From positions 1 to 64,000 of IMG/VR virus record IMGVR_UViG_3300049601_000013: a DNA stretch of 64,000 bases, one strand, 5' to 3'. Position numbers and translations under genes: made by a program. This document shows positions 17,670 through 64,000 of the stretch, piece after piece (the first letter of the stretch is position 1; every line of letters begins with the position of its first letter). The notes beneath the pieces are model-generated. The model searched no databases, was not told where the DNA came from, and worked only from the letters and a program-made list of their open reading frames with translations. The DNA is from a virus.

Positions 17670-17681
17670 CGCGCGTAGGAC

Positions 17682-17738: not shown

Positions 17739-17782
17739 AGTACCATCAGCAACGACACGACAACGACCTGAGGGAGACAGAC

Positions 17783-17974
17783 ATGGCAACGGTCACCAAG
17801 TGGTCCTGCTCCGGCTGCGGCAAGCGGGCGATCAAGATGCGTACGAAGACCGGTCGACGGTGGTACATCGTACACACCTCCGACTGCACGGTCCAGGCGA
17901 ACCTCACCGAAGACGTGGGACCGGTCACATCGGTAAACGATCCGGACAACGCGTACTTCGTGAAAGACGACTAA
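17783..17974 (+). CDS. hypothetical small Cys-containing protein
   Basis: ATG lies behind GAGGGAG and a predicted promoter. Contains WSCSGCGK...HTSDC. The C-terminus carries SVNDPDNAYFV. Confidence 0.5.
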   Translation: MATVTKWSCSGCGKRAIKMRTKTGRRWYIVHTSDCTVQANLTEDVGPVTSVNDPDNAYFVKDD

Positions 17975-17991
17975 GATCTTATGACCGATGG

Positions 17992-18021
17992 TTGACATCG
18001 CGTCATATCATCTGATACATT
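17992..18021 (+). promoter_or_regulatory. sigma70-like promoter
   Basis: TTGACA (17992-17997), 18 nt spacer, TACATT (18016-18021). It precedes gene 18060. Confidence 0.5.
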
Positions 18022-18059
18022 AATCTCAGCACAACAACACGACACGACGGGAGATCACG

Positions 18060-38979: not shown

Positions 38980-39150
38980 CTACTTCGACGGTGTGTTGTC
39001 CACCACTTGCGACTGCGAGTTGTAGACGGCGGCGCGCAGCGACTCCAAGTCGCGAAGCAGCCCGTCCTTCTCTTCCTGCTGACGCACGGCCAGCTGCGCC
39101 TCATTCACCGAAGTGACGGCCGTCTTCTTCCGACCACATCCGCATCCCAC
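38980..39150 (-). CDS. hypothetical small coiled-coil protein (56 aa, below ORF-track cutoff)
   Basis: GTG 39150 follows GGGAGGTAGTC, which lies at the protease stop. It translates to MGCGCGRKKTAVTSVNEAQLAVRQQEEKDGLLRDLESLRAAVYNSQSQVVDNTPSK and ends in TAG at 38980. Confidence 0.4.
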   Translation of the reverse strand: MGCGCGRKKTAVTSVNEAQLAVRQQEEKDGLLRDLESLRAAVYNSQSQVVDNTPSK

Positions 39151-39152: not shown

Positions 39153-41336
39153 CTACCTCCCACGGACCCGGTTGCGAATTTCATCCATGCGCGACTTGTC
39201 GTCGCGTCCCACGCGGTTCTTCAGGCTGGCGATGACGCTCTGCAGCGCCCTCGTCTCGCCGCTGCTCTGCGTCAGCTTCGGCTTCGGCTTCGCCTCGGCA
39301 ACGATGGTGTAGGGGTTGACGCCCGCCGCGACGAGTGTCGTCTGGACTCCCCGGCGCGCCGCGGTCTTCACCCGCGGAACCGGGAAGCCTGGGACGTTGA
39401 CGGCGAGAAGTGCGATGAGCCGCAGCCCGTTGCCGAAGCGGCGCCAGTCTCCGGACAGCTTCGCGGCGCGCAGCGTGCGCAGGCGCAGGGGCGAGAGGTT
39501 CGGACGAAGTGCTCCGGAGAACCACAGGCCGTACTGGTCCTCGCCGGTGACGACGTCCGCGACCGCCGCGCCGGTGTGGTCATAGTGGTCGATGGCTTGG
39601 ACGGCGGTAAGCTTACCGCCGGTCGACGCGTGACCGGTTCCGAGGGTGATGGTGCCGGTGGCGACGGTGTTCCCGTCCGCCGTCAGCGTCTCTCCCAGCA
39701 TGAAGTACTCGTGGAACCGCTCACGTGGCGGCGTTACGCACTGGCCCGAGAAGCCGGTGTGGCACGTTCCCCAGACGGCGGCGTGTCCGTAGATGCGACC
39801 ATCTTCGGTGACGGTGAGTGGCGTCGGTCCCGCCAGCTTGGGGTCATCGAACCACTCACGAGGCGGCGCCTCATCGGTGCAGCCGCAGGCGGTCAACTCG
39901 GCGCGGGCGTCGATGTGACCGGCGAATTGCGCCTCATCATCCTCATCTTCGTCATCGACGTCGTCTTCCTCCGACGACTCCACGGCCATGCTTACGCTCG
40001 CGGACGCGCGAGGTTCGATGGCGAAGTCGGCGTCATCCGGCTCGACCGTGGCCTCGCCGGCATCCAGCATCTGGCCCTCGAGCGCGATGGACGCCTCCAC
40101 GAAGGCGGGGAACTGGACGAGCGTCGCGCCGCGCAGTCGACCGCGGTGAAAGATCGTCAGCTCCGGCGCGGCGAAGAGGTCGCCGAATCCCTCGGCATCC
40201 GCGGCCGCGTCAGACTTCGGGAAGACGAGCTCGACATCCGAGTCCTTGACCGAGTCGACGTCGCCGGACACGCCGCGCAAGAACTTCTGCTCGACCTGGC
40301 GGTACGCCTCGGCGCCGTCATCCCCCTCCAGGTCGAAGACTCCGCGTCCCCAGATCTCGTTGTTCTCGCGCCAGAGCTCATCGATGCGGCCGGCCTGGAC
40401 CGCGGTCTTGTGCCCCTCATCGGTCTGCTTCTGCCACATGAGCGGCAGCGGAAGCGGCGCCGAGCGCAGTGAGCCCTCCGCAAACATGCGACCGTCGCCC
40501 GACTCAACCCCCTCGACGATGAGGACACCGGACCACGCGCCAACCTCGCCGGGCGCCGCCTGGACATCACTTGCGACGTCCGAAGAAGCCTGCGTCACGT
40601 TCATCACCTCATTTTCGCGATCATTGTAGCGCATCGTGAAGCTTTGTTCAGTCGAGTAGCTCTCATCGTCGTACGTCTCATCCGCATTCACCGGCTCTGC
40701 GTCGGCAGCCTCGAAGTTGTCGGTGAGGTCGAAGTCGTAGACCTCATCACCCATGGCCAGTCGAATGCGGTCAAATGTGATGTCCCCGGTGCGGTCAGCC
40801 AGCGACTCCACGAGCGAGTGATCATCGGTGTACGCGAGCGTCACGTGTGGGATCCACGGCTCGTGTTGCTCCGGAATCGCGACGCTGTGGTCCGTCATTC
40901 GGCCGAGTACGCGCTCTCGAATCTTTCGGCAGATGTCGTGAAGACCCGCACCGCTCAGCCCCAGCGTGATGCACGTGTCACGTTCAACGTTGTGGGGGTT
41001 GAACAATGACACGTTAAAGCCGTCCGCGACGACGGGGCCGGTCTCTTCGTCGGCGATCTCGGCGAGCTCGGACAACATCACGTTGAATGACTCTTCGGTG
41101 TGCTCACCGATGTCACCCAGGAAGATCACCGTGCAGTGAAGGTCCTCGCCGTACTCACCTCCGTCGAGCATAAGTCGCTCGGCGTTGCCCACCGTGGGGA
41201 TCAGGGCGATCATGCCGTTGTGAGAGTTGTCGCCCGCGGCGGTTAGCTCTTCCGCCTCCGGCGCACTGAGCACCAGGTCCACGTTGTCCGGGTCCGTGAC
41301 CGCGGTAAGCGTCGTTTCTTCCGTGGGCATCGTCAT
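39153..41336 (-). CDS. capsid maturation protease with N-terminal 2H-phosphoesterase (LigT-like) domain
   Basis: Two HxTx motifs, DLHCTVIFLG and IPHVTLAYT, lie about 97 aa apart. Then come prohead-protease-type segments LIVEGVESGDGRMFAEGSLRSAPLPLPLMWQ and GRIYGHAAVWGTCHTGFSGQCVTPP. Confidence 0.75.
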   Translation of the reverse strand: MTMPTEETTLTAVTDPDNVDLVLSAPEAEELTAAGDNSHNGMIALIPTVGNAERLMLDGGEYGEDLHCTVIFLGDIGEHTEESFNVMLSELAEIADEETGPVVADGFNVSLFNPHNVERDTCITLGLSGAGLHDICRKIRERVLGRMTDHSVAIPEQHEPWIPHVTLAYTDDHSLVESLADRTGDITFDRIRLAMGDEVYDFDLTDNFEAADAEPVNADETYDDESYSTEQSFTMRYNDRENEVMNVTQASSDVASDVQAAPGEVGAWSGVLIVEGVESGDGRMFAEGSLRSAPLPLPLMWQKQTDEGHKTAVQAGRIDELWRENNEIWGRGVFDLEGDDGAEAYRQVEQKFLRGVSGDVDSVKDSDVELVFPKSDAAADAEGFGDLFAAPELTIFHRGRLRGATLVQFPAFVEASIALEGQMLDAGEATVEPDDADFAIEPRASASVSMAVESSEEDDVDDEDEDDEAQFAGHIDARAELTACGCTDEAPPREWFDDPKLAGPTPLTVTEDGRIYGHAAVWGTCHTGFSGQCVTPPRERFHEYFMLGETLTADGNTVATGTITLGTGHASTGGKLTAVQAIDHYDHTGAAVADVVTGEDQYGLWFSGALRPNLSPLRLRTLRAAKLSGDWRRFGNGLRLIALLAVNVPGFPVPRVKTAARRGVQTTLVAAGVNPYTIVAEAKPKPKLTQSSGETRALQSVIASLKNRVGRDDKSRMDEIRNRVRGR

Positions 41337-42340
41337 GATATCACCTGAAGTCGTACGGCCGGACGTCCGGATGGTGTGTTGCGGTTGACCTCCAGGACGC
41401 GGAACCGCGTGCGCGGTCCCAAGATAAGCTCCTGCTCATCTTGAATCGCCGCACGTGATCCCGTGAAGATCGCGGGGGTTCCCGCCGGTACCTCGATCTG
41501 CATGTCCACATCTCCGAAGATCTCGGTGACGCTTGGGTCCAGCGACGTACTAGAGAAGCCGTTGTCCGAGATGTCGAACCCCGCCAGCCGCTCGAGGTCG
41601 TCGATGGACGTCGCGCCGCCGAGGTGCTCCAGGTTCGTCGATCGGAAGACGGTGACCGGCTCGCCCAAGGGCCGCAGCGCGTCGCGAAGCTGGCCGTTAC
41701 GCGTGTTCGCCTCGGCCGTGCAGCTCTGCCCGGTGCGCAAGCACTCGTTCATGTCGTGGTACGCCGTCACCGAGTAGTCGCGCACGGTCTGCTCTTGCTC
41801 GGGCGTCAGGGGCGGCGGGTTCTGCGACTCCATCTCGCCCTGAATGGCTTCCAGGTCACCCGCGTCGCGCGTTGGGAAGTCCGTATCGACGGCCAGGGGA
41901 GCGGTCGACTCGTGGGGACCGGGGCCGGCTGAAGGCGCCGCCGACGGCGCGTTGGGATCGGGCGCGTTCGGATTGGGCGCCGAGGCGGGTGCGGCCGGCG
42001 GCTGGTCCTCCGCCTCTCCCACACGCCAGCCAAGCTTCGTGAGGAGGTACGTCGCGAGCTTGCCTCGCTTGCCGATCGACTGCCACGAGCCGTCGGGCTG
42101 CCGCACCTGCTGGTCGAACTGGCCGGTGCCTGCGTCGTACACCATGCGCTGCGTGCCGTCCTCCGACACGTGCGTGACGTCGCCGTCGGCGTGCTGGCGA
42201 AAGACGTTGGCCTCGGGGTTGTTGCGCGCTCGCAGCGGCGGAGGCACGAAGAAGCGCGCGGCCTTCTTAGCGAAGCGGCCTCCCTTACCTCGCTTATGCT
42301 TCTTTTCGTCGTAGCGTCCTCGCCGCGCGAGCGTGTCCAT
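41333..42340 (-). CDS. ADP-ribosyltransferase-domain protein (R-S-ExE type), short paralog
   Basis: C-terminus has VTVFRSTN, NGFSSTSLD and QDEQELILGPRTRF. The N-terminus has GRFAKK and a DGTQRMVYDAGTGQF...PDGSWQ module shared with the 1267-aa protein. The ATG forms a TAATG overlap. Confidence 0.7.
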   Translation of the reverse strand: MDTLARRGRYDEKKHKRGKGGRFAKKAARFFVPPPLRARNNPEANVFRQHADGDVTHVSEDGTQRMVYDAGTGQFDQQVRQPDGSWQSIGKRGKLATYLLTKLGWRVGEAEDQPPAAPASAPNPNAPDPNAPSAAPSAGPGPHESTAPLAVDTDFPTRDAGDLEAIQGEMESQNPPPLTPEQEQTVRDYSVTAYHDMNECLRTGQSCTAEANTRNGQLRDALRPLGEPVTVFRSTNLEHLGGATSIDDLERLAGFDISDNGFSSTSLDPSVTEIFGDVDMQIEVPAGTPAIFTGSRAAIQDEQELILGPRTRFRVLEVNRNTPSGRPAVRLQVIS

Positions 42341-42825
42341 TACTTGTCTCGCTTCTCGCCGGGCCAGTGGCCGGTCGCCTCGTGGTAGAGGTTGGCGCAC
42401 AAGCCCTCAACGTTTGACGGAAAGTGCTCGCGCAGCTCGCTGGTGCAGCGTCGGAACGAGCCCTCCGTGCCCCACCTGATCTTCGCCGCGCCCTCGCCAC
42501 GAAGCCAGTAGTCTTGAAGCTCACGAGGCATGCGCGACTGCAGCTCCGTTCGCGCCGCCTGCGCGACGGGTCCGGTGACGTCGACGTTCCACCCAGCTGA
42601 TGCCAACACTTCATTCACGTGGGCGGCGGGCGTCTGAAAGATGGCCGCGTACTGCTCGTCAGTGAGACCATTGTTGTCGAGGTCTTCGTCCTCGACGGGA
42701 TTCTCCGGCGACGGCGGCTCCTCCCGAATGAAGAGCGCGTTTTCCGGGTCAGAGACGCTCGTCAGAACGCCCGGGTACGCGGGCTGGTAAGTGGCCCACG
42801 GGTCTTCGTCGGTCGGCGTTGTCAT
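42340..42825 (-). CDS. hypothetical head-module protein
   Basis: N-terminal MTTPT..SVSDPENALF leader. C-terminal YWLRGEGAAKIRWGTEGSFRRC...GLCANLYHEATGHWPGE is a conserved actinophage head-module motif. Confidence 0.55.
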   Translation of the reverse strand: MTTPTDEDPWATYQPAYPGVLTSVSDPENALFIREEPPSPENPVEDEDLDNNGLTDEQYAAIFQTPAAHVNEVLASAGWNVDVTGPVAQAARTELQSRMPRELQDYWLRGEGAAKIRWGTEGSFRRCTSELREHFPSNVEGLCANLYHEATGHWPGEKRDK

Positions 42826-45800
42826 GCGGGAATGACCTCCACTCGTACGCGTGCGTTGCTGCCGTCTTGCACTACTTCGAGAATGCGAAAGCGTGTTCCC
42901 GGTGCCAAGAGAAACTCCCGTTCACCTGGAAATTGACTTACGTTGGCGACGTAAGCTCCTCGCGTGCCCGGAGGAATCTCAATCTGCATGGCGACCGAAC
43001 CGTTAAACGCACTACCTGGGTTGATTGACGTGCTGGAGAATCCGAGATCGCGAACGACATCACCGGTCATGTTTTCCAACTCACTGACGCTCGACACACC
43101 GAACATCTCGAGGTCCGTACCCCGGAACGTCGTGATTGGCTCAGTGGTCGGACGCATCGCCTCAGTGGCCCGCGCGATTCGTCCCTTCACACTTGGCGTG
43201 CAGTCGAATGCTTTATTAAGGCGCAAGCACCTATTTATAGACTTGTACCCACCACCTGTGTAGCTTACCACGGCAGAGTGTTGCGCGTTGGTCCACGACG
43301 GCGGGCTGTTCACCATCATATTATACTGAAGTTGCGTCGCTTGCGACTCATTAAGAATGGCGTAGTTAGGGTTCGGTGGGAACGGCGTGGAACCGATAAC
43401 TCCTGGAATGCCCGTGGGTGATACGGACGGGAGTGTGGGCGTCGGTGTCGGAAAGGAGTTTCCGGCAAGATGGCCCATTACTTTATTTTCAAACAAGCTC
43501 CCATTCGGCACACCCGCTTGCGCGGCCTTCTTTTCATCCACGATCTTTAGAACTTGCTCGGGCGTCAGGCCCACGCTGTTGGCGACGTCGGCGGCCTTCT
43601 GCGCCAGCGCCTGGGGAGAGTCACTTAGCGACATCATGCCGGAAGTGAACTGGAAGAATGCTTGCGTCTGTATCAGCGGTGGCACGCCGGTGATGCTAGG
43701 GTCAGGCGAAGTCGTGGCCGCAGGCGCAGACGAGGGTGTCGGCGTTGGGACGGCCGCACCAGGCGACGCCGGCGGTGGCGTTGATGCGACCGGTGCGGCG
43801 GCCGCCGTACCCAGCTTCGCCTGGATGTGCGCCTTACCCTTGGACGACTTGGACCACTTAGCGATCTTCGCCTGGATCGGCTTCCCGCCGTCCTTCGACG
43901 AGTTGTGGAAGTTCGCGTCCGCATACTTCAGCACATCCTCGATGGACATGCCGGTCGCCTGCGACGCCGCGTACGCGGCGTCAAAGAGCGACTCTGAAGA
44001 GTTGTACCAGTTGACGCCCGCATTTTGAAACTGCGCGTGTACGTCATTCTGCTGCGCGGGCGTCAGCTGTGGTACACCGTTGGCGTCGTACGTCATCGCA
44101 GGCGGAGTAGGTGGTGTGGGCGGCGTAGGCACGGGCGTCGCGCTGGTGATCGGAGAGATGTCACCTTCGGGCAGTGTCACACTTGCGCCACCTGACACAT
44201 TAATGGTGTACGTGCCTCCGGGGTTCGCTGACACGACGGTGCCGGTTCCGTACATCGTGGAAACCGCAGTTCCGGGAGCATGCGATGTGGTTGCGGTCGG
44301 CGCCGGCGCAGGCGTGATCACACTTAGATCATTTACGTTAAACATAGCGGTGGCTCCGCCGGGAAACTCCACTTGCGCCATTGTGCCACTTGGCGCCATG
44401 TTTGTGACTACGCCCGTACCGTCAGGTGTGCTGACTTCGGCGCCAATAGCCGGAAGACTCGGGTCAGTCTCTGACATGTCATCAAACTCACTGGGCTTCA
44501 GCCACAATATGCTACCGTCGGGGCCGGACACCTTGATGAACAGCATGCCGGTGACGTCTGCCTTGACCTCATCAAGTATGGTGTATTCATCAGGTGGTGA
44601 GCCCACCTTCGTACCCGGCTTAGGCACCGTGTCCACAAGCGCTGCTTGCGCATCGCTGAGCTTTACGGGAACGCTCATGGGCACAATCACACTACTACCA
44701 TCGGGAAGTTGAAGCTGAATTCCCGTACTTCCGTTAGGCAGTGTGCCGGTTCCCATGACAGTGCCTACGGTGCCACTTATCGTCTTTACCTTGACGCCAA
44801 CGCCCACTCCGATGTTTGCCCCCGGAATCGGTCCACTTATCGCCGGTGCCGGTGCCGGTGTGGGGTCAATGGCGGGATTCACGGCATTATTGTATGCCTC
44901 CGCCACCTTTACGCTGTGTTGCGGCGTCCACGACGTGCCGTACTTTTCCTTGTACTTATGTGTCTCCACCTCCAGCTGGTCGGCGAGTTCATCACCCAAT
45001 GCAGTGTCACCGTTGGCGTACGCCTCGAGTACTTGGCTGTGTGCATTGGCGATTTTCATGCTGGCATTCGCCTGCACCGTAAGATCAATTAGGCTGTATG
45101 GCTCACCATTGAGTGCTTGTGTTGCGGGAGCATTTGTGGCGCTAAACGTCTTAGCGGTGGTTTTCTTAGCGGTCTTTTTCGCGGGAATGGCCACCGTCGG
45201 AGCCGGAGCTATGGTTGGCGTCGGTGGCGTGACGGCCGCCGCGGCCTTCTTAGCGGTGGCAGCTGCCTTCTTAGTCGCCGCAACGGTTGGGTAGACCGAT
45301 GACGGAAACGGTCCACCTCCGAGCTTTTCCTTCATCGTGTCTGAGATGAGGGTGTCTCCGCGCTGCTCGTCCATGAGCGCGACGACGTGTTCGGGAGCGA
45401 CGTTGTACGTCTGCGCGATGTTCGCGATGTACTGCGCCATCAAGTCGGCAGACATCGTCTCCGGCTTGGGCATCTGTGTCTTCGCCGACGTCAAGATCTG
45501 AAGCACCTTGAACGGCGTGATTCCCGCACCTGAGACGTCATTCCAGCCGGGTGCAAAGGGCCCTGTGATAGGAGCGGTGGGAGCGGCGACCGGCGTGAGC
45601 TCTTCGGTCGTGCCGTCGTGCGGGTCTTCCCACAAGGCACTCAGCTCGTTTGCCTTCTTATACGCGGCGCCCTTGCCCAGGACGTCGATGACCTCCCAGC
45701 CGCCGTCCGGTGTACGACGCTGCACCGTCCAGTTGTTGCCGGCGGCGTTGAAGATCATGCGGTGCTGGCCGTCAGCGGACGCGATGATGGTGCCGTTTGG

Positions 45801-46625
45801 GTGCTTACCGTAGATGACCTTGTTGGTCATCTTCTTTCCACCGGAAGCCGTAGTCGTGGGGGTCGGCGCGGGCGCAGGTGAAGCACCAGGTGTGGATGAA
45901 GCGGTGGGAGCAGAGGTAGGCGTTGCGGCCTTCTTAGCCGATGCTTTCTTTCCGGCACGAGATGTAACGAGTGGTGATACGTTGCCCTCGGTGGTGCCAA
46001 GGGTGAGATCAGTTACCTTTTCTTTCTCACTCGATGTTGAACCCTCCGGCGTGACGACGACCTCAACGACGCCCACACTGGCATTGAAGGTGGGATAGCT
46101 TGTGACGATTCCTACTAGGCCACTCGGCAGCACGACCGACGTACCAGGCGGAGGTGCATCGGCGAACTGCTTACGCTGTGCCGCAGTCATCTTATGAATA
46201 TCGGACGCGAAGTGCTCTTCTTGTGTTCCGTCCGGAAGTTCAACGATGACCGAGTCAAGACCAAACTTGCCCTTCTTATGTGAAAGAATGCGTCCGATAC
46301 CGCCACCGGTGAGTGCCACCGTGTCATTGACGTGCACGCCCGACTCTGCGCCCGGCACTTGCTCGCCACGTGATGGTGTCGGCGCCGCACTCTTTGAGCC
46401 GGCCTTCTTAGCAAAGCGTCCCTTGGAGTCGCGCTTTACCTCACCCTCCGTGAAATCCGGATCCGCCGCAGCCGTCAGGGCCTTGATGAGCGTCGCGTAC
46501 GTCGTCATCTTCGGCCGACGAACGCTCGCCACCGTCTCCGTAGGCGCGGGCGCGGGCATCTCAACGACCCACATGACGTTGTCAGGGTCGGTCAGTGGCG
46601 TGATTTTTGGCGTAGGCGTGGTCAT
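42822..46625 (-). CDS. giant modular protein with C-terminal ADP-ribosyltransferase domain (R-S-ExE)
   Basis: C-terminus has YTGGGYKSINRCLR, ITTFRGTD, LGFSSTSINP and PGEREFLLAPGTRF. Upstream are repeated SH3/KOW-like beta modules, three helical modules and Ala/Pro/Thr linkers. Confidence 0.75.
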   Translation of the reverse strand: MTTPTPKITPLTDPDNVMWVVEMPAPAPTETVASVRRPKMTTYATLIKALTAAADPDFTEGEVKRDSKGRFAKKAGSKSAAPTPSRGEQVPGAESGVHVNDTVALTGGGIGRILSHKKGKFGLDSVIVELPDGTQEEHFASDIHKMTAAQRKQFADAPPPGTSVVLPSGLVGIVTSYPTFNASVGVVEVVVTPEGSTSSEKEKVTDLTLGTTEGNVSPLVTSRAGKKASAKKAATPTSAPTASSTPGASPAPAPTPTTTASGGKKMTNKVIYGKHPNGTIIASADGQHRMIFNAAGNNWTVQRRTPDGGWEVIDVLGKGAAYKKANELSALWEDPHDGTTEELTPVAAPTAPITGPFAPGWNDVSGAGITPFKVLQILTSAKTQMPKPETMSADLMAQYIANIAQTYNVAPEHVVALMDEQRGDTLISDTMKEKLGGGPFPSSVYPTVAATKKAAATAKKAAAAVTPPTPTIAPAPTVAIPAKKTAKKTTAKTFSATNAPATQALNGEPYSLIDLTVQANASMKIANAHSQVLEAYANGDTALGDELADQLEVETHKYKEKYGTSWTPQHSVKVAEAYNNAVNPAIDPTPAPAPAISGPIPGANIGVGVGVKVKTISGTVGTVMGTGTLPNGSTGIQLQLPDGSSVIVPMSVPVKLSDAQAALVDTVPKPGTKVGSPPDEYTILDEVKADVTGMLFIKVSGPDGSILWLKPSEFDDMSETDPSLPAIGAEVSTPDGTGVVTNMAPSGTMAQVEFPGGATAMFNVNDLSVITPAPAPTATTSHAPGTAVSTMYGTGTVVSANPGGTYTINVSGGASVTLPEGDISPITSATPVPTPPTPPTPPAMTYDANGVPQLTPAQQNDVHAQFQNAGVNWYNSSESLFDAAYAASQATGMSIEDVLKYADANFHNSSKDGGKPIQAKIAKWSKSSKGKAHIQAKLGTAAAAPVASTPPPASPGAAVPTPTPSSAPAATTSPDPSITGVPPLIQTQAFFQFTSGMMSLSDSPQALAQKAADVANSVGLTPEQVLKIVDEKKAAQAGVPNGSLFENKVMGHLAGNSFPTPTPTLPSVSPTGIPGVIGSTPFPPNPNYAILNESQATQLQYNMMVNSPPSWTNAQHSAVVSYTGGGYKSINRCLRLNKAFDCTPSVKGRIARATEAMRPTTEPITTFRGTDLEMFGVSSVSELENMTGDVVRDLGFSSTSINPGSAFNGSVAMQIEIPPGTRGAYVANVSQFPGEREFLLAPGTRFRILEVVQDGSNARVRVEVIPA

Positions 46626-48823
46626 ACGACAACCCTCAAGCGAACGACCGACGGGTCACCGTCAGTGGCGGGTGGGATGACTTCCAAGATCTCATAGCGC
46701 GTGCTGGGTGGCATGACCAGCTCATACTCTTCGGTGTTCTCGGTGATGTTCTCGACGTATGCGGCGGGAGCACCGGCGGGAGTCTCGATCTGCATGAGCA
46801 CCGCCTGGCCAGGTGGTGGCGCCGATGAGCCGTGTGTGAAAGACTCCGCCACCTCCGAGTCGATTGAGCTGCTGCTAAAGCCAGGGTCACGCACGACGGC
46901 GCCGACCATTCCCTCGAGTGCCGCGACGTTCCCGACGCCCAGCGCCTGCAGGTTGGCTCCTCGGAACGTCGTTACGCCGCGTGGAAGTGGCCGCATACCC
47001 GCGGTCGCGTTCTCATTGAGCGTCTCAACGTCGTCATCGCAGCCCTCATCGAACCGCAGGCAGTTGTTCATGTCGCGATATGATGACCCCGTGTATGTGA
47101 CGAGTCCACTTTGTTCAGCGGATGTCCACGGCTCATCGTCAAGCATCTCTTGCTGCAGCGCGTCCATCTCCGCGGGCGACGCCCGCGGAAAGTCTTCATC
47201 CACATCCAAGAACGGCGTGCCGCGAATCTCGGAGTCCGCACCGGCGGAGGGAGGAGCGGTCGCGACCGCGAAGTCATCACCGGCGAGCGCGTCGATGCCG
47301 AAGGGCTGCGCCAAGATGTCTTCGAATCCGTCGCTGTCCTCGATGACTTGCGCCGCATCCGGTGAGACGTTCTCCAGCGACTGCGGAGAGTCGTCAAACT
47401 GGACGCGAATGTTCTCGTTGAGCCCGTCGGATCCCGCATCCGCGACGCGAACAGTTCCCGCACGGTTGCCCACGACGACACGGTCGCCGGGGAGCGCGTA
47501 CACCCCCTCCGCTACGGAGAGGCTGTCGAGTACATCTTGGTCCACCTGGACGAGCGGAGCCGCCGGCGAGGGAGGGCCGGTCGTTGGCTCGATCGTGATG
47601 TCATCCGGCTCCGGCTCCGGCTCCGGAGTGGGCGGAGGCGGAGGCGCCGCGGGTGCGGTCTTCTTTCCCGGAACCTTCTTCGCGCTCTTCTTCGCCGGCG
47701 GTGGTGCCACCGGTGCGGGTGTCGGCGGGGGTGGCGTAGGCGCCGGAGCCGGTGCGGCCGGAGTGGGCGCCGGCGCCGGCGGTGGCGTTGGCGCGGGAGC
47801 CGTCTTCTTCGCGGGCGGCGGTGCAGCCTTCTTCGCCGGCTTCGTGTAGTCGATCTTTGGGGCGGCCTTCTTCGCCGGCTTCTTGTAGCTGATCTTCTTG
47901 CCGGAACCCGGCTTCGGAGCGAAGCGTCCCTTGTCCCGGTTCACCTTCGACTCATCGAATGGCCTACGAGCAAGCTCGTTAAGCTGCACCGCCGCGGTCA
48001 GCGAGTCGAGGTCGACGAAGTTCGCGGGGTCGAACTCGTCGGTCACGTCCGGGAGGTCGTCCAGCGCGAGCGTCAGCTCGGACTTCTTAACGTCGAAGGT
48101 CATCGTGCAGCGGCAGTTGATGACGCAGCCGGGCTCACCCTGCGGGTCGCCGGGAAAAGCCAGCGCCTCGCCACAGACGATGAACACGTTGTTGACGCTT
48201 ACCGTCTGGCCATTGGCCTTGCGATGTGCCTCACGCGTGCGATCATCCTTGGTGGCGAGCCACGTCTTCTTCGCGATGACGCCAGTCGACATGATCTCGT
48301 CCAGCGCGCCGGCGTTGCTGGCAGAGATGATCTCCGTCCGCGCCACCGTCTCGGCGCGCGAGCGGCTCCAGTCGGTGACACCCTGAAGTCGCGTCGCGAG
48401 CTGCTCCGTCGACTCGCCCGCCCGGAAGCCCTCGATCAGCTGTGCACGCGCGCGGGCCCACGTTCCCTCGGTGACGCCCACCATGCGGTTTGCGGCGTCG
48501 ATCAGGTAAGCAACCGCCGCGGACTGCGACACGAAGGGAACGTCGGCGTTGGCGAGGGTGACGAGCTGCAGGTGCGTACGCTCCGCCGAGCCGACGTACT
48601 CATCCACGACCCGCGGAAAGAAGTGGTCATTGACCGCTCCTCGCCAGGCGGCCCGCGCCTGGTCGAGAATGACCCGCTCAGGTCGCTCGGCGGCCGCCGT
48701 GATAGTCGACTCGAGGGCGGCCGTCGCGCGTCGCAGAATGCCACTCAACGTCGTGAACATGTCGGCAGCGAGGGCGTCCGCGTGGCGCTGTAGCTCGGTC
48801 TCGGGCGCCATCTTGAGCTTCAT
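46622..48823 (-). CDS. MuF/SPP1 gp7-like head morphogenesis protein fused to C-terminal ADP-ribosyltransferase domain
   Basis: MuF core ETVARTEIISASNAG...WLATKDDRTREAHRKANGQ...CVINCRCTM, then a Pro/Ala/Lys linker. C-terminal YTGSSYRDMNNCLR, TTFRGAN, GFSSSSID and TEEYELVMPPSTRY. Confidence 0.8.
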   Translation of the reverse strand: MKLKMAPETELQRHADALAADMFTTLSGILRRATAALESTITAAAERPERVILDQARAAWRGAVNDHFFPRVVDEYVGSAERTHLQLVTLANADVPFVSQSAAVAYLIDAANRMVGVTEGTWARARAQLIEGFRAGESTEQLATRLQGVTDWSRSRAETVARTEIISASNAGALDEIMSTGVIAKKTWLATKDDRTREAHRKANGQTVSVNNVFIVCGEALAFPGDPQGEPGCVINCRCTMTFDVKKSELTLALDDLPDVTDEFDPANFVDLDSLTAAVQLNELARRPFDESKVNRDKGRFAPKPGSGKKISYKKPAKKAAPKIDYTKPAKKAAPPPAKKTAPAPTPPPAPAPTPAAPAPAPTPPPPTPAPVAPPPAKKSAKKVPGKKTAPAAPPPPPTPEPEPEPDDITIEPTTGPPSPAAPLVQVDQDVLDSLSVAEGVYALPGDRVVVGNRAGTVRVADAGSDGLNENIRVQFDDSPQSLENVSPDAAQVIEDSDGFEDILAQPFGIDALAGDDFAVATAPPSAGADSEIRGTPFLDVDEDFPRASPAEMDALQQEMLDDEPWTSAEQSGLVTYTGSSYRDMNNCLRFDEGCDDDVETLNENATAGMRPLPRGVTTFRGANLQALGVGNVAALEGMVGAVVRDPGFSSSSIDSEVAESFTHGSSAPPPGQAVLMQIETPAGAPAAYVENITENTEEYELVMPPSTRYEILEVIPPATDGDPSVVRLRVVV
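47590..47900 (-). repeat. Pro/Ala/Lys low-complexity linker with a ~32-nt imperfect direct repeat
   Basis: gccttcttcgccggcttcgtgtagtcgatctt and gccttcttcgccggcttcttgtagctgatctt encode KIDYTKPAKKAAP and KISYKKPAKKAAP. PAP/PPP runs flank them. Confidence 0.55.
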
Positions 48824-50451
48824 TACGGACGAGTCCTCTCGGCGATCTCGAGAAAGCGACGGTCGACGGCGCTCTCACCGGGCGGTGGTGGAGGCGCCGT
48901 GGACGTCTCCGGTGGACCGAGAGACGGTGCACCGGTGGCCGGCTGGGGTACGGGGAGGTTCGCACCGGGCGGGGTCGTGGATTCCTCGCCCTCACCGCCG
49001 GCCACCGGAGTTCCTGTAAGCATCTCGAACGAGTTGACTACCTGCTGGCCGTTGTACGCCAGCTTCGTCAAGATCTGCTCGTCGCGCTCTGCGTCCGTGG
49101 GAGCGTCGGCGTCATCGAAGCCGGTGACTCGCCGAAGCGCGGCGTTGGAGATCGCGACCCGGTCGTGCAGCTGGACCGCACGTTCTCCGAGGTCGGGCTT
49201 CTTCTCAAGTTCGGATGCGTCGTACCAGACGACGTAGCGTACGCCGTCGTCATCCTCACCGTCATCATCCTGGTCGGTGTCGGCGGCGTACTCCGCGAGA
49301 CTCTGACTCGACAGACCCGGCTGGAGGTAGCCCACGGTCAAGCCGCGGCAGATCGTTTCCACGGTGGGTAGCACGTGAACCTTGATCGCCTGCTCTTCGA
49401 TGTTCCACGCACTCCAGTGGTTCACATCTCCCATTCCCGTGAGAACCTCGGCCGGGACGTTGAGTATCTTGGCCAGTCGACCCAGCGCGCGGTCGCGCCC
49501 GTCAAGCGTCTCCGCGACGACGTTATCCGAGAAGCGGATGTGCTTGAACTTGTCGATGAACTCCGACGCGACGCGCATCGGAATGGGCAGTGCGGCCGCG
49601 GCGCTCCCCGGGTTCTGAATCGCCTTCGACGCAACATCGATCCACTCAGAGATCAGCGGGTCCGCCGCGTCGGAGAACTCATCACGAACGGGAAACGTGA
49701 CCTCATCCGGAATCAGCCAGACGCCGTTGCTAGCGACGCGGGCGGTTAGCTCGGTGATGATCTTACGGTTGTAGAGGTCGACCTCACGCATCACGCCAAG
49801 CGCGGGCTCCGTCGGCGAGATGGCGAGCCACGGGAACTGCTCGTCGGGGTTCCAGATGCGTACGACCAGCGACTCCGCCGGCAGCGGGACCCACGCGGAC
49901 TCGTCGACGCGGATCGCGAAGTTTCCGCTGTTGTCCTTGCGAACGACGTCGGTCGAGTAGACGCCACTGTGCGTGTTGCCATCATCATCTTCGTACATGA
50001 TGAAGTACGCATCACCCGCGATGTCAAGCTTCACGGAAAAGCTCTTCATCAAGACCGACTGGCCGCCCACGCCCTCGGCGAGCTTGTCCATAAGCTCGGC
50101 GGCGGGACCCTCTTCCACGATCTCCGGCTCATCCGAGCCGGGCACGATCTTCGCCGCCTTCAATCGGACGCGCGAGACCGCGTTGCCCTTCCACTCGGTG
50201 GCATACCAGAGCTCACCTTGAGTGCGCCAGTTGTCCCACGCCTCATCCTGCCAACGCTTCGACTGGATGGTTGTGCCGCGGTCGGCGCGCAGTACGGCGG
50301 CCGCGGCGGTAAGTGAGTCGCGTGGCGCACGCGCCGCGGCGCGTCGCTCACGGCGGGTCAGCTTCCGGTGCGCGGGAACGCGTGAAGCCACGACCTCCGT
50401 GGACATGACACGAGCTCGGCCTCGCGCCGATGAGGTCTTGCGCCACGCCAT
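48823..50451 (-). CDS. portal protein
   Basis: 542 aa from ATG 50451 (after GGAGGTAGTAGG). The WQDEAWDNWRTQGELWYATEWKGNAVSRVRL pattern and its position upstream of MuF are typical of actinophage portals. Confidence 0.75.
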   Translation of the reverse strand: MAWRKTSSARGRARVMSTEVVASRVPAHRKLTRRERRAAARAPRDSLTAAAAVLRADRGTTIQSKRWQDEAWDNWRTQGELWYATEWKGNAVSRVRLKAAKIVPGSDEPEIVEEGPAAELMDKLAEGVGGQSVLMKSFSVKLDIAGDAYFIMYEDDDGNTHSGVYSTDVVRKDNSGNFAIRVDESAWVPLPAESLVVRIWNPDEQFPWLAISPTEPALGVMREVDLYNRKIITELTARVASNGVWLIPDEVTFPVRDEFSDAADPLISEWIDVASKAIQNPGSAAAALPIPMRVASEFIDKFKHIRFSDNVVAETLDGRDRALGRLAKILNVPAEVLTGMGDVNHWSAWNIEEQAIKVHVLPTVETICRGLTVGYLQPGLSSQSLAEYAADTDQDDDGEDDDGVRYVVWYDASELEKKPDLGERAVQLHDRVAISNAALRRVTGFDDADAPTDAERDEQILTKLAYNGQQVVNSFEMLTGTPVAGGEGEESTTPPGANLPVPQPATGAPSLGPPETSTAPPPPPGESAVDRRFLEIAERTRP

Positions 50452-50455
50452 CCTA

Positions 50456-51040
50456 CTACCTCCGAGCGAGTACGACTTGGTAACGGCCTGCGGTCTCGTG
50501 CCGAACGACGTTCCAGCCGCCGCTCTCAATCATGGCGCGGTAGCCGGGCATGTCCCACGCCCACGCGTGCACCGCGTCATGTGACGCCTCAGTCTCATCC
50601 ACGGGCGATGATGCGATCAAGACGCGGACGCCCGCGTTCCGGACGGCGCGAACCAGGTCGTGAGGCCGAGCCACGTGCTCGAGAACCTCGAGCATCGTGG
50701 TGACGGTCCCAAGCTCTGGCCGCTCGACGGTGAAGTCTTGCAGGCGCACGTCCACCCCGCGCTCCGCCGCTCCCACGACGTTGGCCGGGCAGAGGTCGTA
50801 ACCCCACGCGCGTTCCACGAACGGCGCCACGAGGGTCAAGAACCCGCCGTCGCCCGCTCCCAGGTCCGACAGCGTCGGACGCGCGTACCAGTTCTCAGCC
50901 GCGCGTACGCAGTCGAGCGCGAGGTCCATGCGCGGCCGATGGTGCGTCTGCTCCAGGTGCGGGGCGCGCTCGCGGTCGCGGTGAAACTCGGCGGTGCTGA
51001 CGTGCGGCACCGTGTTCTCCTCGAAGAGTCGCCACTCCAT
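50456..51040 (-). CDS. class I SAM-dependent methyltransferase-like protein
   Basis: LSDLGAGDGGFL (motif I) and VTTMLEVLEHVARP. ATG 51040 overlaps the upstream TGA. Confidence 0.6.
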   Translation of the reverse strand: MEWRLFEENTVPHVSTAEFHRDRERAPHLEQTHHRPRMDLALDCVRAAENWYARPTLSDLGAGDGGFLTLVAPFVERAWGYDLCPANVVGAAERGVDVRLQDFTVERPELGTVTTMLEVLEHVARPHDLVRAVRNAGVRVLIASSPVDETEASHDAVHAWAWDMPGYRAMIESGGWNVVRHETAGRYQVVLARR

Positions 51041-51387
51041 CAGTCCACCTCCGGCTCGTGTGTGGCAATGATGCCGGTTAGCGCCGACGCGGCGAAGACC
51101 ATCGCGTAGGGCCACGGCACCGAGGTGTACCGGTCGAACACCAGCACGACACCCGCGGCGACGTACATGGACGCGCACCACATGCACGTGATCAGGTACG
51201 AGAACCAGTGATCTTCGCCGAACTTCCGGATCACCCAGTCGCGCGGTCGGGCGATCAACGGAAACGCGTCTGCGGCGATCAGCCGGGTGACGCGGTACGT
51301 CACGAGGCTGATCACGATGAGTATGAAGATCGGGTAAAGAGGATCAAAGCCTGCCCACGAGTTGTACTCACCTACGGTGCTCTCCAC
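51040..51387 (-). CDS. DUF1360-like integral membrane protein
   Basis: YRVTRLIAADAFPLIARPRDW...LITCMWCASMYVAAG pattern. GTG 51387 follows GGGAGGCTATC. Confidence 0.55.
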   Translation of the reverse strand: MESTVGEYNSWAGFDPLYPIFILIVISLVTYRVTRLIAADAFPLIARPRDWVIRKFGEDHWFSYLITCMWCASMYVAAGVVLVFDRYTSVPWPYAMVFAASALTGIIATHEPEVD

Positions 51388-51490
51388 GATAGCCTCCCAG
51401 TGATACGGTACTACACCTATGTGAAGTTTGACGTGTATTGACGAGAGTGCGGGTTGACCTGGCCCGATGTGTGCCACCTGGACACGACAA

Positions 51491-51521
51491 AGAGCCCCAC
51501 CCAGGAAGCGGGTGGGGCTCT
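51491..51521 (-). terminator. rho-independent terminator
   Basis: AGAGCCCCACCC / GGGTGGGGCTCT stem, followed by minus-sense TTTGTCGTGT. Confidence 0.6.
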
Positions 51522-51541
51522 GTGCGTTGCCGCGGTGGATG

Positions 51542-51973
51542 CTAGTCGGACAGCAGCCAGGCGATGAGTACCACGATCGCGGCGACGAAGATGCCGGCGA
51601 TGAGGGCGATGGCCCACACCGGCATGTCATCGTCATCGTGCTTCTTACGACTGAGGCACTGCTGGAACGCGACGCTGTTAAGCGCGTTCGCGTTCGGCAG
51701 GTAGCAGAAGTCCTGCATGTTCATGACGATCGCGGTGCCGTCCGGGTGCGTCACGGTCGTGGGCGGCAGCTTGGCGAGGTCCTTGGGCTTCTGGATCTTA
51801 ACGCCGCCCCCGCCCGAGTTGCCGCCGGTGGACCCGCTCGTCGACCCGCCTTTAGAGCCGCTCGAGCCCTTTCCGCCGGTCGAACTGCCTCCACTGGAGC
51901 TACCCCCGGTGCCGCCTCCCTTGCCGCCTGAGGAGCCGCCGGAGGTCTTTTCCACGTACGCTACGTAGTACAC
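51542..51973 (-). CDS. Gly/Ser-rich low-complexity protein with C-terminal TM anchor
   Basis: GTG 51973 follows GGGAGACAAC. A ~47-aa (G/S/T/K)n tract is followed by a DDDD patch and then VWAIALIAGIFVAAIVVLIAWLL. Confidence 0.45.
   Translation of the reverse strand: MYYVAYVEKTSGGSSGGKGGGTGGSSSGGSSTGGKGSSGSKGGSTSGSTGGNSGGGGVKIQKPKDLAKLPPTTVTHPDGTAIVMNMQDFCYLPNANALNSVAFQQCLSRKKHDDDDMPVWAIALIAGIFVAAIVVLIAWLLSD
51803..51943 (-). repeat. Gly/Ser/Thr/Lys low-complexity coding tract
   Basis: SGGSSGGKGGGTGGSSSGGSSTGGKGSSGSKGGSTSGSTGGNSGGGG. Confidence 0.6.
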
Positions 51974-63071: not shown

Positions 63072-64000
63072 TCAGGCGCGCAGCCACTCGGGGTTGTCAA
63101 CGTACCACCGCACCGTGTTCTCCAGCGACCGCTGGAGCGTCGTAGGTGGCATCCAGCCGAGCTTCATCCTGATCTTACCGCCGTCCAGCGCGTACCGCAG
63201 GTCGTGCCCCGGACGTGACGTGTGGAAGTCCGTGTAGACCGTAAGACTCTCCACGTATCGGTCGACGTCGATGTGAGGCACGTCCAGTGCGCCCAGGCGC
63301 TGGAGAATGTGAGCCACCGTGCGAACGAGCTCATCATTTGCGATCTCACGCTCGCCCACGACGTTGTACCGCGGAGGCAGCGCGTCGCCGTCCGAGTACG
63401 ACGTCGGCCTCCCGTGCATGGTGAGGTACATCCACGCGTCCGCGAGGTTGTCCGCGTGCAGGTAGAAGCGGCTGCCCGCCACGCCGTCGCGGTCCGCGTG
63501 CACGATGATCTCTTCGTCGTCCAGCAGCTTACGGATCACCATGGGCAGGAACTTCTCGGGATCCTGCCGCTCGCCGATGATGTTCATCGTGTTGGTGATC
63601 ACGATGGGCAAGTCGTACGTCCGCCAGTACGAGTAGGCGATGGCCTCCTGCGCCGCCTTGCTCGCGGAGTACGGGTTGCTCGGCAGGATCGTCTCCCACT
63701 CCCGGTGCCGGTGCTCGCCGGCCGCCGGGCCGTAGACCTCATCGGTCGACATCTGGAGAAAGATGTCAAGGTCATCCATTCGGCGCGCGGCGTCGAGCAC
63801 GTTCGTCATGAGCGCGACGTTGTTCTGGATGAACGACCCCGGCTCGATGATGGACCGATCGACGTGACTCGATGACGCGACGTTGAAGACGTAGCGGCAG
63901 CTTCCCCAGCGCTCCAGGATCGTCGGGCCGAGGGGAAGCGCCAGGTCGCAGGGCGTGATGAGCGTGCGTTCCCACGCGGCCTTGCCCGAGAGGTCATCAT
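63072..64000 (-). CDS. rmlB: dTDP-glucose 4,6-dehydratase (NDP-sugar dehydratase, SDR family), N-terminus beyond window
   Basis: MSTDEVYG, YSASKAAQE (YxxxK) and SRPGHDLRYALD. The frame stays open upstream of the listed Met to the window end (..VFNVASSSHVDRSIIEPGSFIQNNV..). Confidence 0.85.
   Translation of the reverse strand, partial: DDLSGKAAWERTLITPCDLALPLGPTILERWGSCRYVFNVASSSHVDRSIIEPGSFIQNNVALMTNVLDAARRMDDLDIFLQMSTDEVYGPAAGEHRHREWETILPSNPYSASKAAQEAIAYSYWRTYDLPIVITNTMNIIGERQDPEKFLPMVIRKLLDDEEIIVHADRDGVAGSRFYLHADNLADAWMYLTMHGRPTSYSDGDALPPRYNVVGEREIANDELVRTVAHILQRLGALDVPHIDVDRYVESLTVYTDFHTSRPGHDLRYALDGGKIRMKLGWMPPTTLQRSLENTVRWYVDNPEWLRA

Follow-up and report, generated by a model that had tools for sequence, protein, structure and literature searches.

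Putatively head-packaged ADP-ribosyltransferases and the portal-to-protease interval

Phages that inject single host-modifying enzymes are known, and the classic case is T4 Alt, a capsid-packaged ADP-ribosyltransferase (ART) injected with the DNA; head targeting in T4 is the work of the CTS/gp21 cleavage system. T4 has three ART paralogs, Alt, ModA and ModB, but just one of them is packaged, and non-packaged Alt paralogs have been described (PMC5512222). In actinobacteriophages, fusions annotated as 'MuF-like minor capsid protein and VIP2-like ADP-ribosyltransferase toxin' have been reported (PMC7302621), and MuF polymorphic toxins are defined by a MuF domain followed by a toxin domain at the C-terminus (Jamet 2017; PMC5576092). 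Iyer et al. (2017, 2022) describe polyvalent proteins and head-packaged NAD/ADP-ribose effectors that embody the same concept as the locus presented here, with multiple effector domains delivered with DNA and MuF, ART, 2H and Nudix domains combined in like manner.

We analysed a 64-kb stretch (the window) of the genome of an uncultured actinobacterial phage, a genome of about 92 kb of which some 28 kb lie outside the window. Between the portal and the capsid protease are four genes, three of them with a C-terminal PF03496 ART domain, and the gene map and Pfam results thereby bear out what a preliminary description had read from the sequence. All head-module genes are on the minus strand:

48823-50529, minus strand: portal (phrog_776 portal, E 2.6e-103), upstream module boundary
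Junction portal/MuF-ART: TAATG (the portal stop overlaps the MuF-ART start)
46622-48823, minus strand: MuF-ART, 733 aa
Junction MuF-ART/large ART: ATGA
42822-46625, minus strand: large ART, 1267 aa
Junction large ART/p161: ATGA
42340-42825, minus strand: p161, 161 aa
Junction p161/small ART: TAATG
41333-42340, minus strand: small ART, ATG at 42340, 335 aa, 100% identical to the JGI gene call P0142
Junction small ART/protease: ATGA
39153-41336, minus strand: protease, downstream module boundary

Neighbouring genes from portal to protease all overlap, by 1 or 4 nt. These overlaps would permit the translational coupling of ART and head genes that had been proposed, and it is in this form that the proposal stands.

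Neither MuF-ART fusions nor head-packaged ARTs are new to the literature, and the module represents this known phage strategy in several copies. Microbacterium phages Percival and Goodman and Gordonia phages Phlop and Fireball encode portal-adjacent proteins with an N-terminal MuF and a C-terminal PF03496 domain, as in MuF-ART, and the predicted virion location is the same; however, the cultured MuF-ART phages have one ART copy, whereas the window has three ART genes, two of them on non-MuF carriers. T4 Alt resembles the window ARTs in its PF03496 match (E 5.8e-36), R-S-E active site, large N-terminal non-catalytic part and late synthesis, but alt lies between gene 54 and gene 30, near baseplate genes, rather than between portal and protease. 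The similarity to T4 Alt is remote, with hhalign giving E 8e-6 and a probability of 84% across 88 columns, and tblastn with the ART domain found no T4-like phage among the host groups listed. Polyvalent proteins carry at least two effector domains per polypeptide, whereas the window effectors are split into separate overlapping genes with one catalytic domain per ART protein. The layout also departs from that of MuF polymorphic toxins in that MuF-ART is followed downstream by a 1267-aa ART, p161 and a protease, all overlapping.

These proteins are probably arginine mono-ARTs that are loaded into the capsid, ejected together and directed at different targets. Packaging and injection are suggested by the MuF fusion, the portal-to-protease position, the shared linear motifs and the MuF- and protease-ART fusions of cultured phages, and the same conclusion has been published for MuF-ART fusions and ARTs beside head genes (PMC9503650, PMC5512222); processing, arginine specificity and distinct targets are presumed.

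Catalytic domains and their likely acceptors

The three ART domains lie at the C-termini of their carriers:

46625..47188, minus strand: ART domain 1 (MuF-ART aa 546-733), with R in TTFRG, S-S-S and E-Y-E
42825..43385, minus strand: ART domain 2 (large ART aa 1081-1267), with R in TTFRG, S-T-S and E-R-E
41336..41896, minus strand: ART domain 3 (small ART aa 149-335), with R in TVFRS, S-T-S and E-Q-E

PF03496 (ADPrib_exo_Tox) matches the C-termini of MuF-ART (aa 566-715), large ART and small ART with E-values of 1.1e-16, 1.3e-23 and 5.1e-15 and scores of 61.3, 83.8 and 55.8 bits, against a gathering cut-off of 23.4. This family comprises the VIP2/C3/Alt-type (R-S-E) mono-ADP-ribosyltransferases, of which, on their profile scores, all three window domains are members. 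All the signature strings quoted in the preliminary description are present (YTGSSY, TTFRGAN, GFSSSS and EEYELV; YTGGGY, TTFRGTD, GFSSTS and GEREFLL; VTVFRST, GFSSTS and DEQELIL), and the R, S-x-S and ExE elements are in register as FRG/FRS, SSS/STS and EYE/ERE/EQE and invariant in 16 of the 16 lineage domains aligned. The domains are paralogous, as had been claimed: pairwise BLASTP among them gives E-values of 6e-34, 5e-31 and 6e-33 at 32-36% local identity, and a curated domain alignment gives 36-41%. The length first put at ~165 aa did not hold, the aligned domain measuring about 185 aa.

A profile of the 16 lineage ART domains matches Lmo0066, VIP2, CdtA, iota Ia, Certhrax, C3 and Tre1 with E-values from 7e-27 to 1e-14. 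The ART fold was modelled for the small ART, domains 1 and 2 being assigned through the profile match to solved ARTs. Foldseek with the small-ART AlphaFold model returned 8za7_B as the best match (E 5e-12, target TM 0.81), followed by C3 (0.7), VIP2, CDTa and C2-I. All three ARTs have ExE rather than QxE, and arginine is therefore the most likely acceptor.

R-S-E ARTs include guanine-modifying enzymes, and ModB-type RNAylation is cited in PMC9503650, so the proteins might be packaged yet have DNA, RNA or a small molecule as their acceptor, or be chiefly NAD+ glycohydrolases. We give this a low probability, since the significant PDB matches of the lineage profile are all protein-modifying enzymes (VIP2, iota, CDTa, C2, C3, Tre1, SpvB and ExoS/T), no pierisin- or scabin-type entry occurs among its 50 PDB matches, and ExE is kept throughout the aligned lineage domains. 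Two features of the carriers, presented below, speak in favour of such acceptors: the barrels of the large ART and the strongly basic character of motif A.

Carrier proteins and shared linear motifs

MuF-ART consists of a MuF domain, motif A, a Pro/Ala/Lys-rich linker and the ART domain. Phage_Mu_F (PF04233) matches aa 127-241 (E 5e-18, 66.3 bits against a cut-off of 29.6), phrog_2468 head morphogenesis matches with E 1e-40, and TIGR01641 scores 40.9 bits against a cut-off of 39.65, the sole addition of the NCBIfam search. Together these matches confirm that one ART is fused to a MuF/gp7 head-morphogenesis domain. A MuF match together with portal adjacency is true of this first protein only, and by Pfam the large and small ARTs have no MuF domain.

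In an AlphaFold model of aa 1-1075, the large ART starts with motif B followed by motif A and a pair of small beta domains; next come domain X and helical domains, then a coiled coil, four barrels of the KOW/Tudor/SH3-like type and helical domain Y, after which comes the ART; long disordered linkers separate the domains. The small ART is simpler, with an N-terminal motif A, domain X, a linker and the ART domain (AlphaFold pLDDT 78). The folded carrier domains are as follows:

45621..45824, minus strand: domain X of large ART (aa 268-335), a small 4-strand plus helix domain common to the small ART
42005..42223, minus strand: domain X of small ART (aa 40-112), pLDDT 77-90
44151..44828, minus strand: four tandem SH3-like (KOW/Tudor-like) beta-barrels of large ART (aa 600-825), from AlphaFold and Foldseek
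43812..44093, minus strand: helical domain Y of large ART (aa 845-938), the family's most conserved block

Domain X is folded in both AlphaFold models, connects the two proteins by BLASTP (E 2e-7 between aa 271-322 of the large ART and aa 46-98 of the small ART) and is 75-93% identical between the large ART and orthologs. Domain Y has 85-89% mean column identity over aa 871-930 in 10 orthologs and is 69-82% identical to locus relatives. The barrel region is the hypervariable centre of the protein, just 28-47% identical to relatives; its Foldseek matches are Spt5 KOW and Tudor tandems, a fold often binding nucleic acid or RNA polymerase. Fold searches with the large-ART N-terminal region returned nothing beyond generic KOW/Tudor/SH3-like barrels and uncharacterised viral proteins, and pointed to no function for domain X or Y.

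The fourth gene product, p161, consists of motif B and a conserved C-terminal domain (aa 91-161); it matches phrog_6439 (E 7e-25), and its domain occurs in 1163 representative clusters, being fused in other phages to MuF, 2H and protease domains (for example in P0027). In the protease gene product, motif B (aa 10-24) precedes a 2H phosphoesterase at aa ~31-215, and aa ~481-727 make up the capsid maturation protease itself. The 2H part has both HxT motifs and matches PF13563 with E 8e-6, at 26.3 bits slightly below the cut-off of 27. The protease part matches phrog_18402 head maturation protease (E 9e-72) and phrog_2659 (E 3e-26); the protease has no Pfam match and its C-terminal half no PDB sequence match at E up to 1, so that the assignment is that of the PHROG annotation.

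Two short motifs run through these proteins:

47912..47959, minus strand: motif A in MuF-ART, aa 289-304, FDESKVNRDKGRFAPK
46404..46454, minus strand: motif A in large ART, aa 58-74, FTEGEVKRDSKGRFAKK
42263..42313, minus strand: motif A in small ART, aa 10-26, YDEKKHKRGKGGRFAKK
46560..46601, minus strand: motif B in large ART, aa 9-22, TPLTDPDNVMWVVE
within 42340..42825, minus strand: motif B in p161, aa 21-34, LTSVSDPENALFIR

Motif A, [FYW]DESKVKR-x-G[RK]FAKK, is basic and predicted to be disordered (pLDDT below 50 over small-ART aa 1-33, which include it). It contains the GRFA string already noticed in all three ART proteins, and these are indeed the only occurrences in real reading frames of the window; one further match lies in a non-coding frame. 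Throughout the lineage, motif A occurs once per ART protein. In the large ART, F58, E60, V63, K64, R65, G69, F71, A72, K73 and K74 are invariant in 12 sequences; in the small ART, E12, K16, R17, G21, R22, F23, A24 and K26 are invariant across 22 homologs of 44-88% identity; and between MuF-ART and its L012 relative, aa 286-310 (motif A) are 96% identical, against 84% for the MuF domain. Motif B is an N-terminal TDPDNV motif common to the large ART, p161, the protease and their orthologs, kept at the N-terminus in 10 of the 11 large-ART orthologs (P0001-P0011), the exception (P0007) having a shorter N-terminus.

Motif A also stands after the MuF domain in MuF proteins that have no ART (P0023-P0027) and in polyvalent MuF proteins, and an IMG/VR DNA-pattern search found it preceding a topoisomerase IB core and a DUF7211 protein in unrelated viral contigs. 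These occurrences make GRFA a segment of a longer motif, portable and not confined to ARTs. Motif A is not a general MuF feature: among 120 MuF homologs listed, only the nearest have it (P0023 and P0025-P0027, with a GRFT variant in P0024). In 10 of 20 IMG/VR contigs with a motif-A-like DNA pattern, the pattern fell in an unrelated protein ending FFDESKVKRTYLAP, which has no G[KR]F half, and was set aside as chance resemblance. Mycobacterium phage Onyinye gp16 (1340 aa, annotated 'ADP-ribosyltransferase') is built like the large ART: motif A (MALANHFDESKVKRDNDGKFAKK) stands at its extreme N-terminus, small beta domains are repeated, and the C-terminus is a PF03496 ART. Its gene, however, lies upstream of terminase as the sole copy found there, whereas the large ART lies between portal and protease. 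Literature searches yielded no experiments with these actinophage ARTs or with motifs A and B, and the passages searched in Iyer et al. 2017 and 2022 do not mention the motifs ('GRF', 0 occurrences).

Since the three ARTs of the head operon share a basic tag, the phage probably loads several host-modifying enzymes into its capsid. The ARTs would be made together with the portal, the MuF head protein and the prohead protease, each at the C-terminus of a carrier with putative head-association determinants (MuF, motif A, motif B, domain X), the carriers being beads-on-a-string proteins with long Pro/Ala/Thr linkers. They would be incorporated into the procapsid, might be trimmed by the protease, and would leave the capsid together with the DNA. 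In the new host cell, they would carry out NAD+-dependent ADP-ribosylation of host proteins, most likely on arginine, and the paralogs would hit different substrates, for host take-over or against defence systems. It is possible, though we hold the idea tentatively, that motifs A and B act as portable signals for capsid loading or for processing and so define a general cargo system of HK97-type actinophage heads; they could instead be protease sites, or DNA-binding or portal-binding elements.

A late-operon position sets just the timing of synthesis, and the ARTs might be expressed late and act unpackaged in the producing cell during assembly, either modifying host or phage proteins, as T4 ModA and ModB do after entry, or blocking superinfection. 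The two ART proteins devoid of a MuF domain and the T4 precedent of non-packaged Alt paralogs (PMC5512222) would fit such a role. However, one ART is covalently joined to MuF, motif A is common to all three ARTs and to MuF-only head proteins, motif B is common to the large ART and the protease, and cultured relatives of the domain family have the ART fused to capsid protease or MuF. Unpackaged action appears unlikely.

Lineage history, immunity genes and significance

Relatives of the module were obtained by protein searches; megablast of 41000-49000 against cultured phages gave no match, and back-translated portal peptides gave no confirmed relative in IMG/VR or GTDB genomes. All seven metagenomic phage relatives examined carry two to four ART domains, some fused in one protein, and in the lineage domain alignment the three ART copies fall in three positional ortholog clades, ART domain 1 sitting in a 'MuF' clade with L001, L002, L006 and L004_mid. 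As judged from these alignments, the multi-ART layout is an old, lineage-wide feature and not a recent triplication. Distant relatives are true polyvalent proteins, with MuF and two ARTs (P0012, P0013) or MuF, Nudix and two ARTs (P0015, P0018). The 193 cultured phages with a matching ART domain have one copy each (193 records, 193 places), and in cultured actinophages annotations give the family as a fusion with either MuF or the protease of capsid maturation. In L004, the 'MuF-clade' ART is on a separate protein, an instance of some shuffling of ART modules between carriers.

The ART domains of MuF-ART and large ART are 41-74% identical to relatives, whereas the carrier domains MuF, X and Y are 69-93% and the capsid protein 84-90% identical, and divergence of the ART domains runs at two to four times the rate seen for the MuF domain, domain X or the major capsid protein. 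The small ART is a mosaic, 91%, 79% and 50% identical to its L012, L006 and L002 counterparts. The earlier suggestion of several host targets or an arms race gains indirect support from this pattern of three separately kept lineages with fast ART divergence.

In large-ART orthologs, conservation of domains X and Y far exceeds that of the ART domain, and this could mean that the proteins are mainly structural internal-head or ejection proteins to which the ART is a losable accessory. Consistent with this, the small ART is absent altogether from the close relative L001, the closest MuF homologs (P0023-P0027) have motif A without an ART, and 4 of 22 small-ART orthologs have no second, catalytic Glu of ExE (EQT or EQA), so that catalysis appears dispensable in some members of that lineage. 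Against a mainly structural role, the window ARTs and the full set of 16 lineage domains compared retain R, S-x-S and ExE, and each ART lineage is kept in several divergent phages, which argues for selection on catalysis; we regard such a role as improbable.

Absence of an obvious immunity gene, likewise suggested earlier, held up in a Pfam scan of about 47 window ORFs (those of the head module and, outside it, those of at least ~140 aa), which detected no macro, ARH, NADAR or Nudix domain. This bears on whether the locus encodes MuF-type polymorphic toxins for interbacterial competition, with an immunity protein shielding the lysogen (Jamet 2017). In sequence and in fold, the ART domain is best matched by ART-ARH pairs (Listeria Lmo0066, PDB 8za7; Serratia Tre1-Tri1), secreted antibacterial toxins with an adjacent ARH immunity gene, and that the closest solved structure, 8za7_B, is a toxin with such a partner, while none is found here, is a weakening point for the reading as injected effectors. 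The MuF plus C-terminal toxin architecture (PMC5576092) and the relocated ART of L004 also agree with a competition role. However, no ARH was found in the scanned ORFs and no small ORF follows any ART gene, each of which shares 1 or 4 nt with the head gene after it. Nor can p161 serve as the immunity protein, because its domain belongs to head modules and many phages have it joined to MuF, 2H and protease domains. The ART copies are positional orthologs rather than swapped cassettes, and the ORFs scanned in the 64-kb window yielded neither an integrase nor a repressor. A toxin-immunity role in competition is therefore very unlikely.

Taken as capsid-loaded, co-ejected ARTs, these proteins would add to the known strategy that three to four different ARTs can form a stable complement of one phage head. 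Each of them has long been retained while its catalytic domain evolves quickly, a combination that points to several host targets hit at DNA entry. The presence of motif A on every predicted cargo ART makes it a candidate for internal cargo selection by siphophage-type HK97 capsids. If this is true, motifs A and B would correspond, on the phage side, to the T4 capsid-targeting sequence or to the cargo-loading peptides of encapsulins, and any tagged effector could be loaded, with ART, topoisomerase IB and possibly kinase-like domains as candidates and the ARTs as one cargo set. The motif could then serve to load proteins into actinophage capsids, those of mycobacteriophages included.

The head module and its ADP-ribosyltransferases

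Between the portal and protease genes of this uncultured phage, three minus-strand genes have the extents given in the preliminary description and encode proteins ending in an ADP-ribosyltransferase (ART) domain. The module comprises:

48823-50529, minus strand, portal, 568 aa
46622-48823, minus strand, MuF-ART, 733 aa
42822-46625, minus strand, large ART, 1267 aa
42340-42825, minus strand, p161, 161 aa
41333-42340, minus strand, small ART, 335 aa
39153-41336, minus strand, 2H phosphoesterase and protease, 727 aa
38980-39150, minus strand, conserved small ORF, 56 aa
37175-38902, minus strand, major capsid protein, 575 aa

PHROGs assignments, on which identification of the protease is based, are concordant for the portal, head-morphogenesis, protease and major head proteins. 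We place the start of the small ART at the ATG at 42340, not at an upstream GTG; all orthologs share this start, and JGI gene call P0142 is identical to the resulting protein. The junctions between successive genes are TAATG or ATGA overlaps, the arrangement expected for the translational coupling that had been proposed.

Pfam finds ADPrib_exo_Tox (PF03496) at all three C-termini (E values of 1e-16, 1e-23 and 5e-15) and Phage_Mu_F (PF04233) in the first protein, and the three domains match one another (BLASTP E values of 6e-34 to 5e-31) with R, S-x-S and ExE in register, which bears out the earlier reading of three paralogous ARTs with intact catalytic signatures, one of them fused to MuF. A profile built from 16 ART domains of this phage lineage matches the solved ARTs Listeria Lmo0066, VIP2, CdtA, iota Ia, Certhrax, C3larvin, Tre1, SpvB and C2-I with E values of 7e-27 to 1e-14, the C3 exoenzymes coming next (2e-12 to 2e-8). 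T4 Alt, also a member of PF03496, has only remote similarity to the profile (hhalign 84%, E value of 8e-6). In an AlphaFold model of the small ART (mean pLDDT 78), the ART part superposes on 8za7_B (target TM 0.81), as well as on C3, VIP2 and CDTa. Work on the iota and C2 toxins versus C3 has associated ExE with arginine as the acceptor. Since all three window copies carry ExE rather than QxE, we infer that arginine would be their acceptor, and we regard another acceptor, or NADase activity, as improbable.

Other genes deserve mention. A 2H (LigT-like) phosphoesterase whose two HxT motifs are intact (LHCTVIF, PHVTLAY) forms the N-terminal part of the protease (39153-41336, minus strand), a fusion that relatives also have. 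This phosphoesterase may be a further packaged enzyme, for instance one that acts on cyclic or 2'-5' nucleotide signals along the lines proposed in PMC5512222 and PMC9503650. The 56-aa ORF between protease and major capsid protein (38980-39150, minus strand) begins (M)GCGCGRKK and is kept in all relatives checked, at 57-59 aa. Directly upstream of the portal (50456-51636, minus strand) lie a methyltransferase-like gene and a DUF1360 gene, a pair also found in all close relatives (L001, L002, L004, L006 and L012). A replication and nucleotide block occupies 1440-18971 on the plus strand, opposite to the head module, and encodes a UDG-like protein, thymidylate synthase, family A DNA polymerase, SNF2 helicase, PD-(D/E)XK nuclease, dUTPase, C5 cytosine methylase, DUF932 and a PG_binding_1-containing lysin; among the larger, scanned ORFs of the 64-kb window, no integrase was seen. 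Genes for three glycosyltransferase-like proteins and one GDP-mannose 4,6-dehydratase/epimerase-like protein (12208-13419, plus strand; 19459-20520, 21310-21978 and 63072-63809, minus strand) suggest that the phage modifies virion proteins, its DNA or the surface of the host with sugars.

Shared motifs and non-catalytic domains

The GRFA(K/P)K motif noted earlier in all three proteins is present, but it is only the tail of a longer basic motif, [FYW]DESKVKR-x(1-4)-G[RK]FAKK (motif A), which occurs once per ART protein in the window and in every relative. Its residues are invariant in 22 small-ART homologs (44-88% identity) and 12 large-ART homologs, and it is predicted to be disordered in both structure models. 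Judged by its occurrences, motif A is not ART-specific: it lies downstream of the MuF domain in ART-less and polyvalent MuF proteins, and the 1340-aa ART encoded by Mycobacterium phage Onyinye begins with it. We also scanned IMG/VR with a DNA pattern covering the first eight residues only; outside one unrelated protein family, the G-x-F half was also present in 9 of 11 matches, some preceding a topoisomerase IB core or a DUF7211 protein. An unrelated viral family of ~180 aa ending ...KFFDESKVKRTYLAP (IMG/VR contigs L013-L015, L017, L019-L021, L023 and L030-L032) has eight residues in common with motif A but not the G[KR]F half, a resemblance that we dismiss as coincidence. Motif B, hydrophobic-[TS]-D-P-x-N-[VA] followed by hydrophobic residues, is N-terminal in the large ART, p161, the protease and their orthologs. 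We suggest only tentatively that motifs A and B could be general capsid-loading or processing signals.

Onyinye gp16 (L007, 5618-9640, plus strand), encoded upstream of the terminase in a cultured phage, has a weak HipA-like kinase match (E value of 0.002) and could stand in for the large ART in a system more open to experiment.

The large and small ARTs also have in common a small beta domain, domain X (BLASTP E value of 2e-7). In the model, disordered Pro/Ala/Thr linkers string together the small folded domains that make up the rest of the large ART; four of these are KOW/Tudor/SH3-like barrels, and helical bundles and a coiled coil are also present. In p161, the C-terminal domain (aa 91-161; phrog_6439, no Pfam family) is widespread, with 1163 representative clusters; of 57 long members, 18 also contain MuF, 15 a 2H phosphoesterase and 4 a Mu-like protease. 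The domain occurs alone or within proteins of up to 1800 aa, and once each fused to Zeta toxin, topoisomerase IB and ferritin. From these shared motifs and domains and the p161 fusions, all four genes between portal and protease bear head-association marks.

Given the fusions of its domain to MuF, 2H and protease, p161 is not a candidate immunity protein. The preliminary description had reported no obvious immunity gene, and indeed no small ORF lies downstream of the ART genes and no ARH or macro gene was found among the larger ORFs of the window, which were those scanned, about 28 kb of the genome lying outside it. Both points count against the ARTs being a MuF polymorphic toxin with immunity, which we consider very unlikely.

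Age and divergence of the three copies

The source phage was assembled several times at about 92 kb. It has no close cultured relative: megablast gave no match to cultured phages, and its capsid protein shows ~32% identity to the counterparts in Microbacterium and Streptomyces phages. Relatives are metagenomic and were reached by protein searches; reading their head modules gave a small census of seven distinct loci, including:

L012, three-ART layout as in the window
L006, three-ART layout as in the window
L002/L003, three ARTs
L004, at least three ARTs, probably four (a gene truncated at the contig end begins with motif A and domain X)
L001, two ARTs
L005, two ART domains within one 1589-aa MuF protein

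More distant proteins combine MuF and two ARTs in one chain, in some cases together with a Nudix domain. A neighbour-joining tree places the three window domains in three separate clades, each with positional counterparts, and identity is 36-41% among paralogs and 60-79% to the closest ortholog; on this evidence, the triplication is old and each copy has been kept. A tblastn search of 50,697 cultured phage records (E values up to 1e-5) found the domain at 193 places in 193 records, one copy per phage. In L005, a more distant relative, a gene for an Acb2/Tad1-hairpin protein (8094-8318, plus strand) sits directly upstream of the portal, beside a DUF1360 gene; members of this family are anti-CBASS and anti-Thoeris sponges.

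Identity of window regions to relatives
Major capsid protein: 84-90%
MuF domain: 71-84%
Domain X: 75-93%
Helical domain Y: 69-82%
ART domain of MuF-ART: 46-74%
ART domain of large ART: 41-66%
ART domain of small ART: 91% (L012), 79% (L006), 50% (L002)

The residue between the ExE glutamates and the preceding loop vary even inside ortholog groups. This divergence pattern fits effectors under conflict-driven change or module exchange. Separately, the centre of the large ART (aa 336-840; 44100-45620, minus strand) is hypervariable, 32-35% identical to L012 against 75-84% for the flanking domains and 84% for the capsid protein, with a G+C of 0.594 versus about 0.65 nearby, and looks like a module replacement. 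The second glutamate of ExE is replaced (EQT or EQA) in 4 of 22 small-ART orthologs (P0158, P0161, P0162 and P0164), which keep the arginine and S-T-S and are probably catalytically dead, retained in the head module. These replacements speak against a strict need for catalysis; that the three ART proteins are mainly structural strikes us as quite unlikely.

A predicted set of capsid cargo

The best-supported reading, which we hold to be reasonably probable, is that the three ARTs form a set of capsid cargo. It draws on the MuF fusion, the operon position, the motifs that the ARTs have in common with MuF-only proteins and with the protease, and cultured actinophages in which a single ART of the same family is fused to MuF or a capsid protease; comparative analyses in PMC9503650, PMC7302621 and PMC5512222 point in the same direction. 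The ARTs would be synthesized together with the head proteins, enter the procapsid via MuF and the shared motifs and domains, perhaps be trimmed by the protease, leave the capsid along with the DNA and, at an early stage of infection, each ADP-ribosylate a different set of host proteins. This scheme predicts packaging, cleavage and ejection as well as distinct targets, and the arginine specificity is likewise a prediction. Action late in the producer cell, without packaging, seems to us unlikely.

MuF-ART fusions, ARTs adjoining head genes, 2H domains on head proteins and the idea of injected polyvalent effectors have already been described. What is new is a conserved head module in which three to four R-S-E ART paralogs, separated long ago, sit on different carriers, a layout seen in none of the 193 cultured phages carrying the domain. 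Also new are the related, truly polyvalent proteins that include VIP2-type ARTs, and the marking of predicted cargo by a small domain and two short, conserved motifs.
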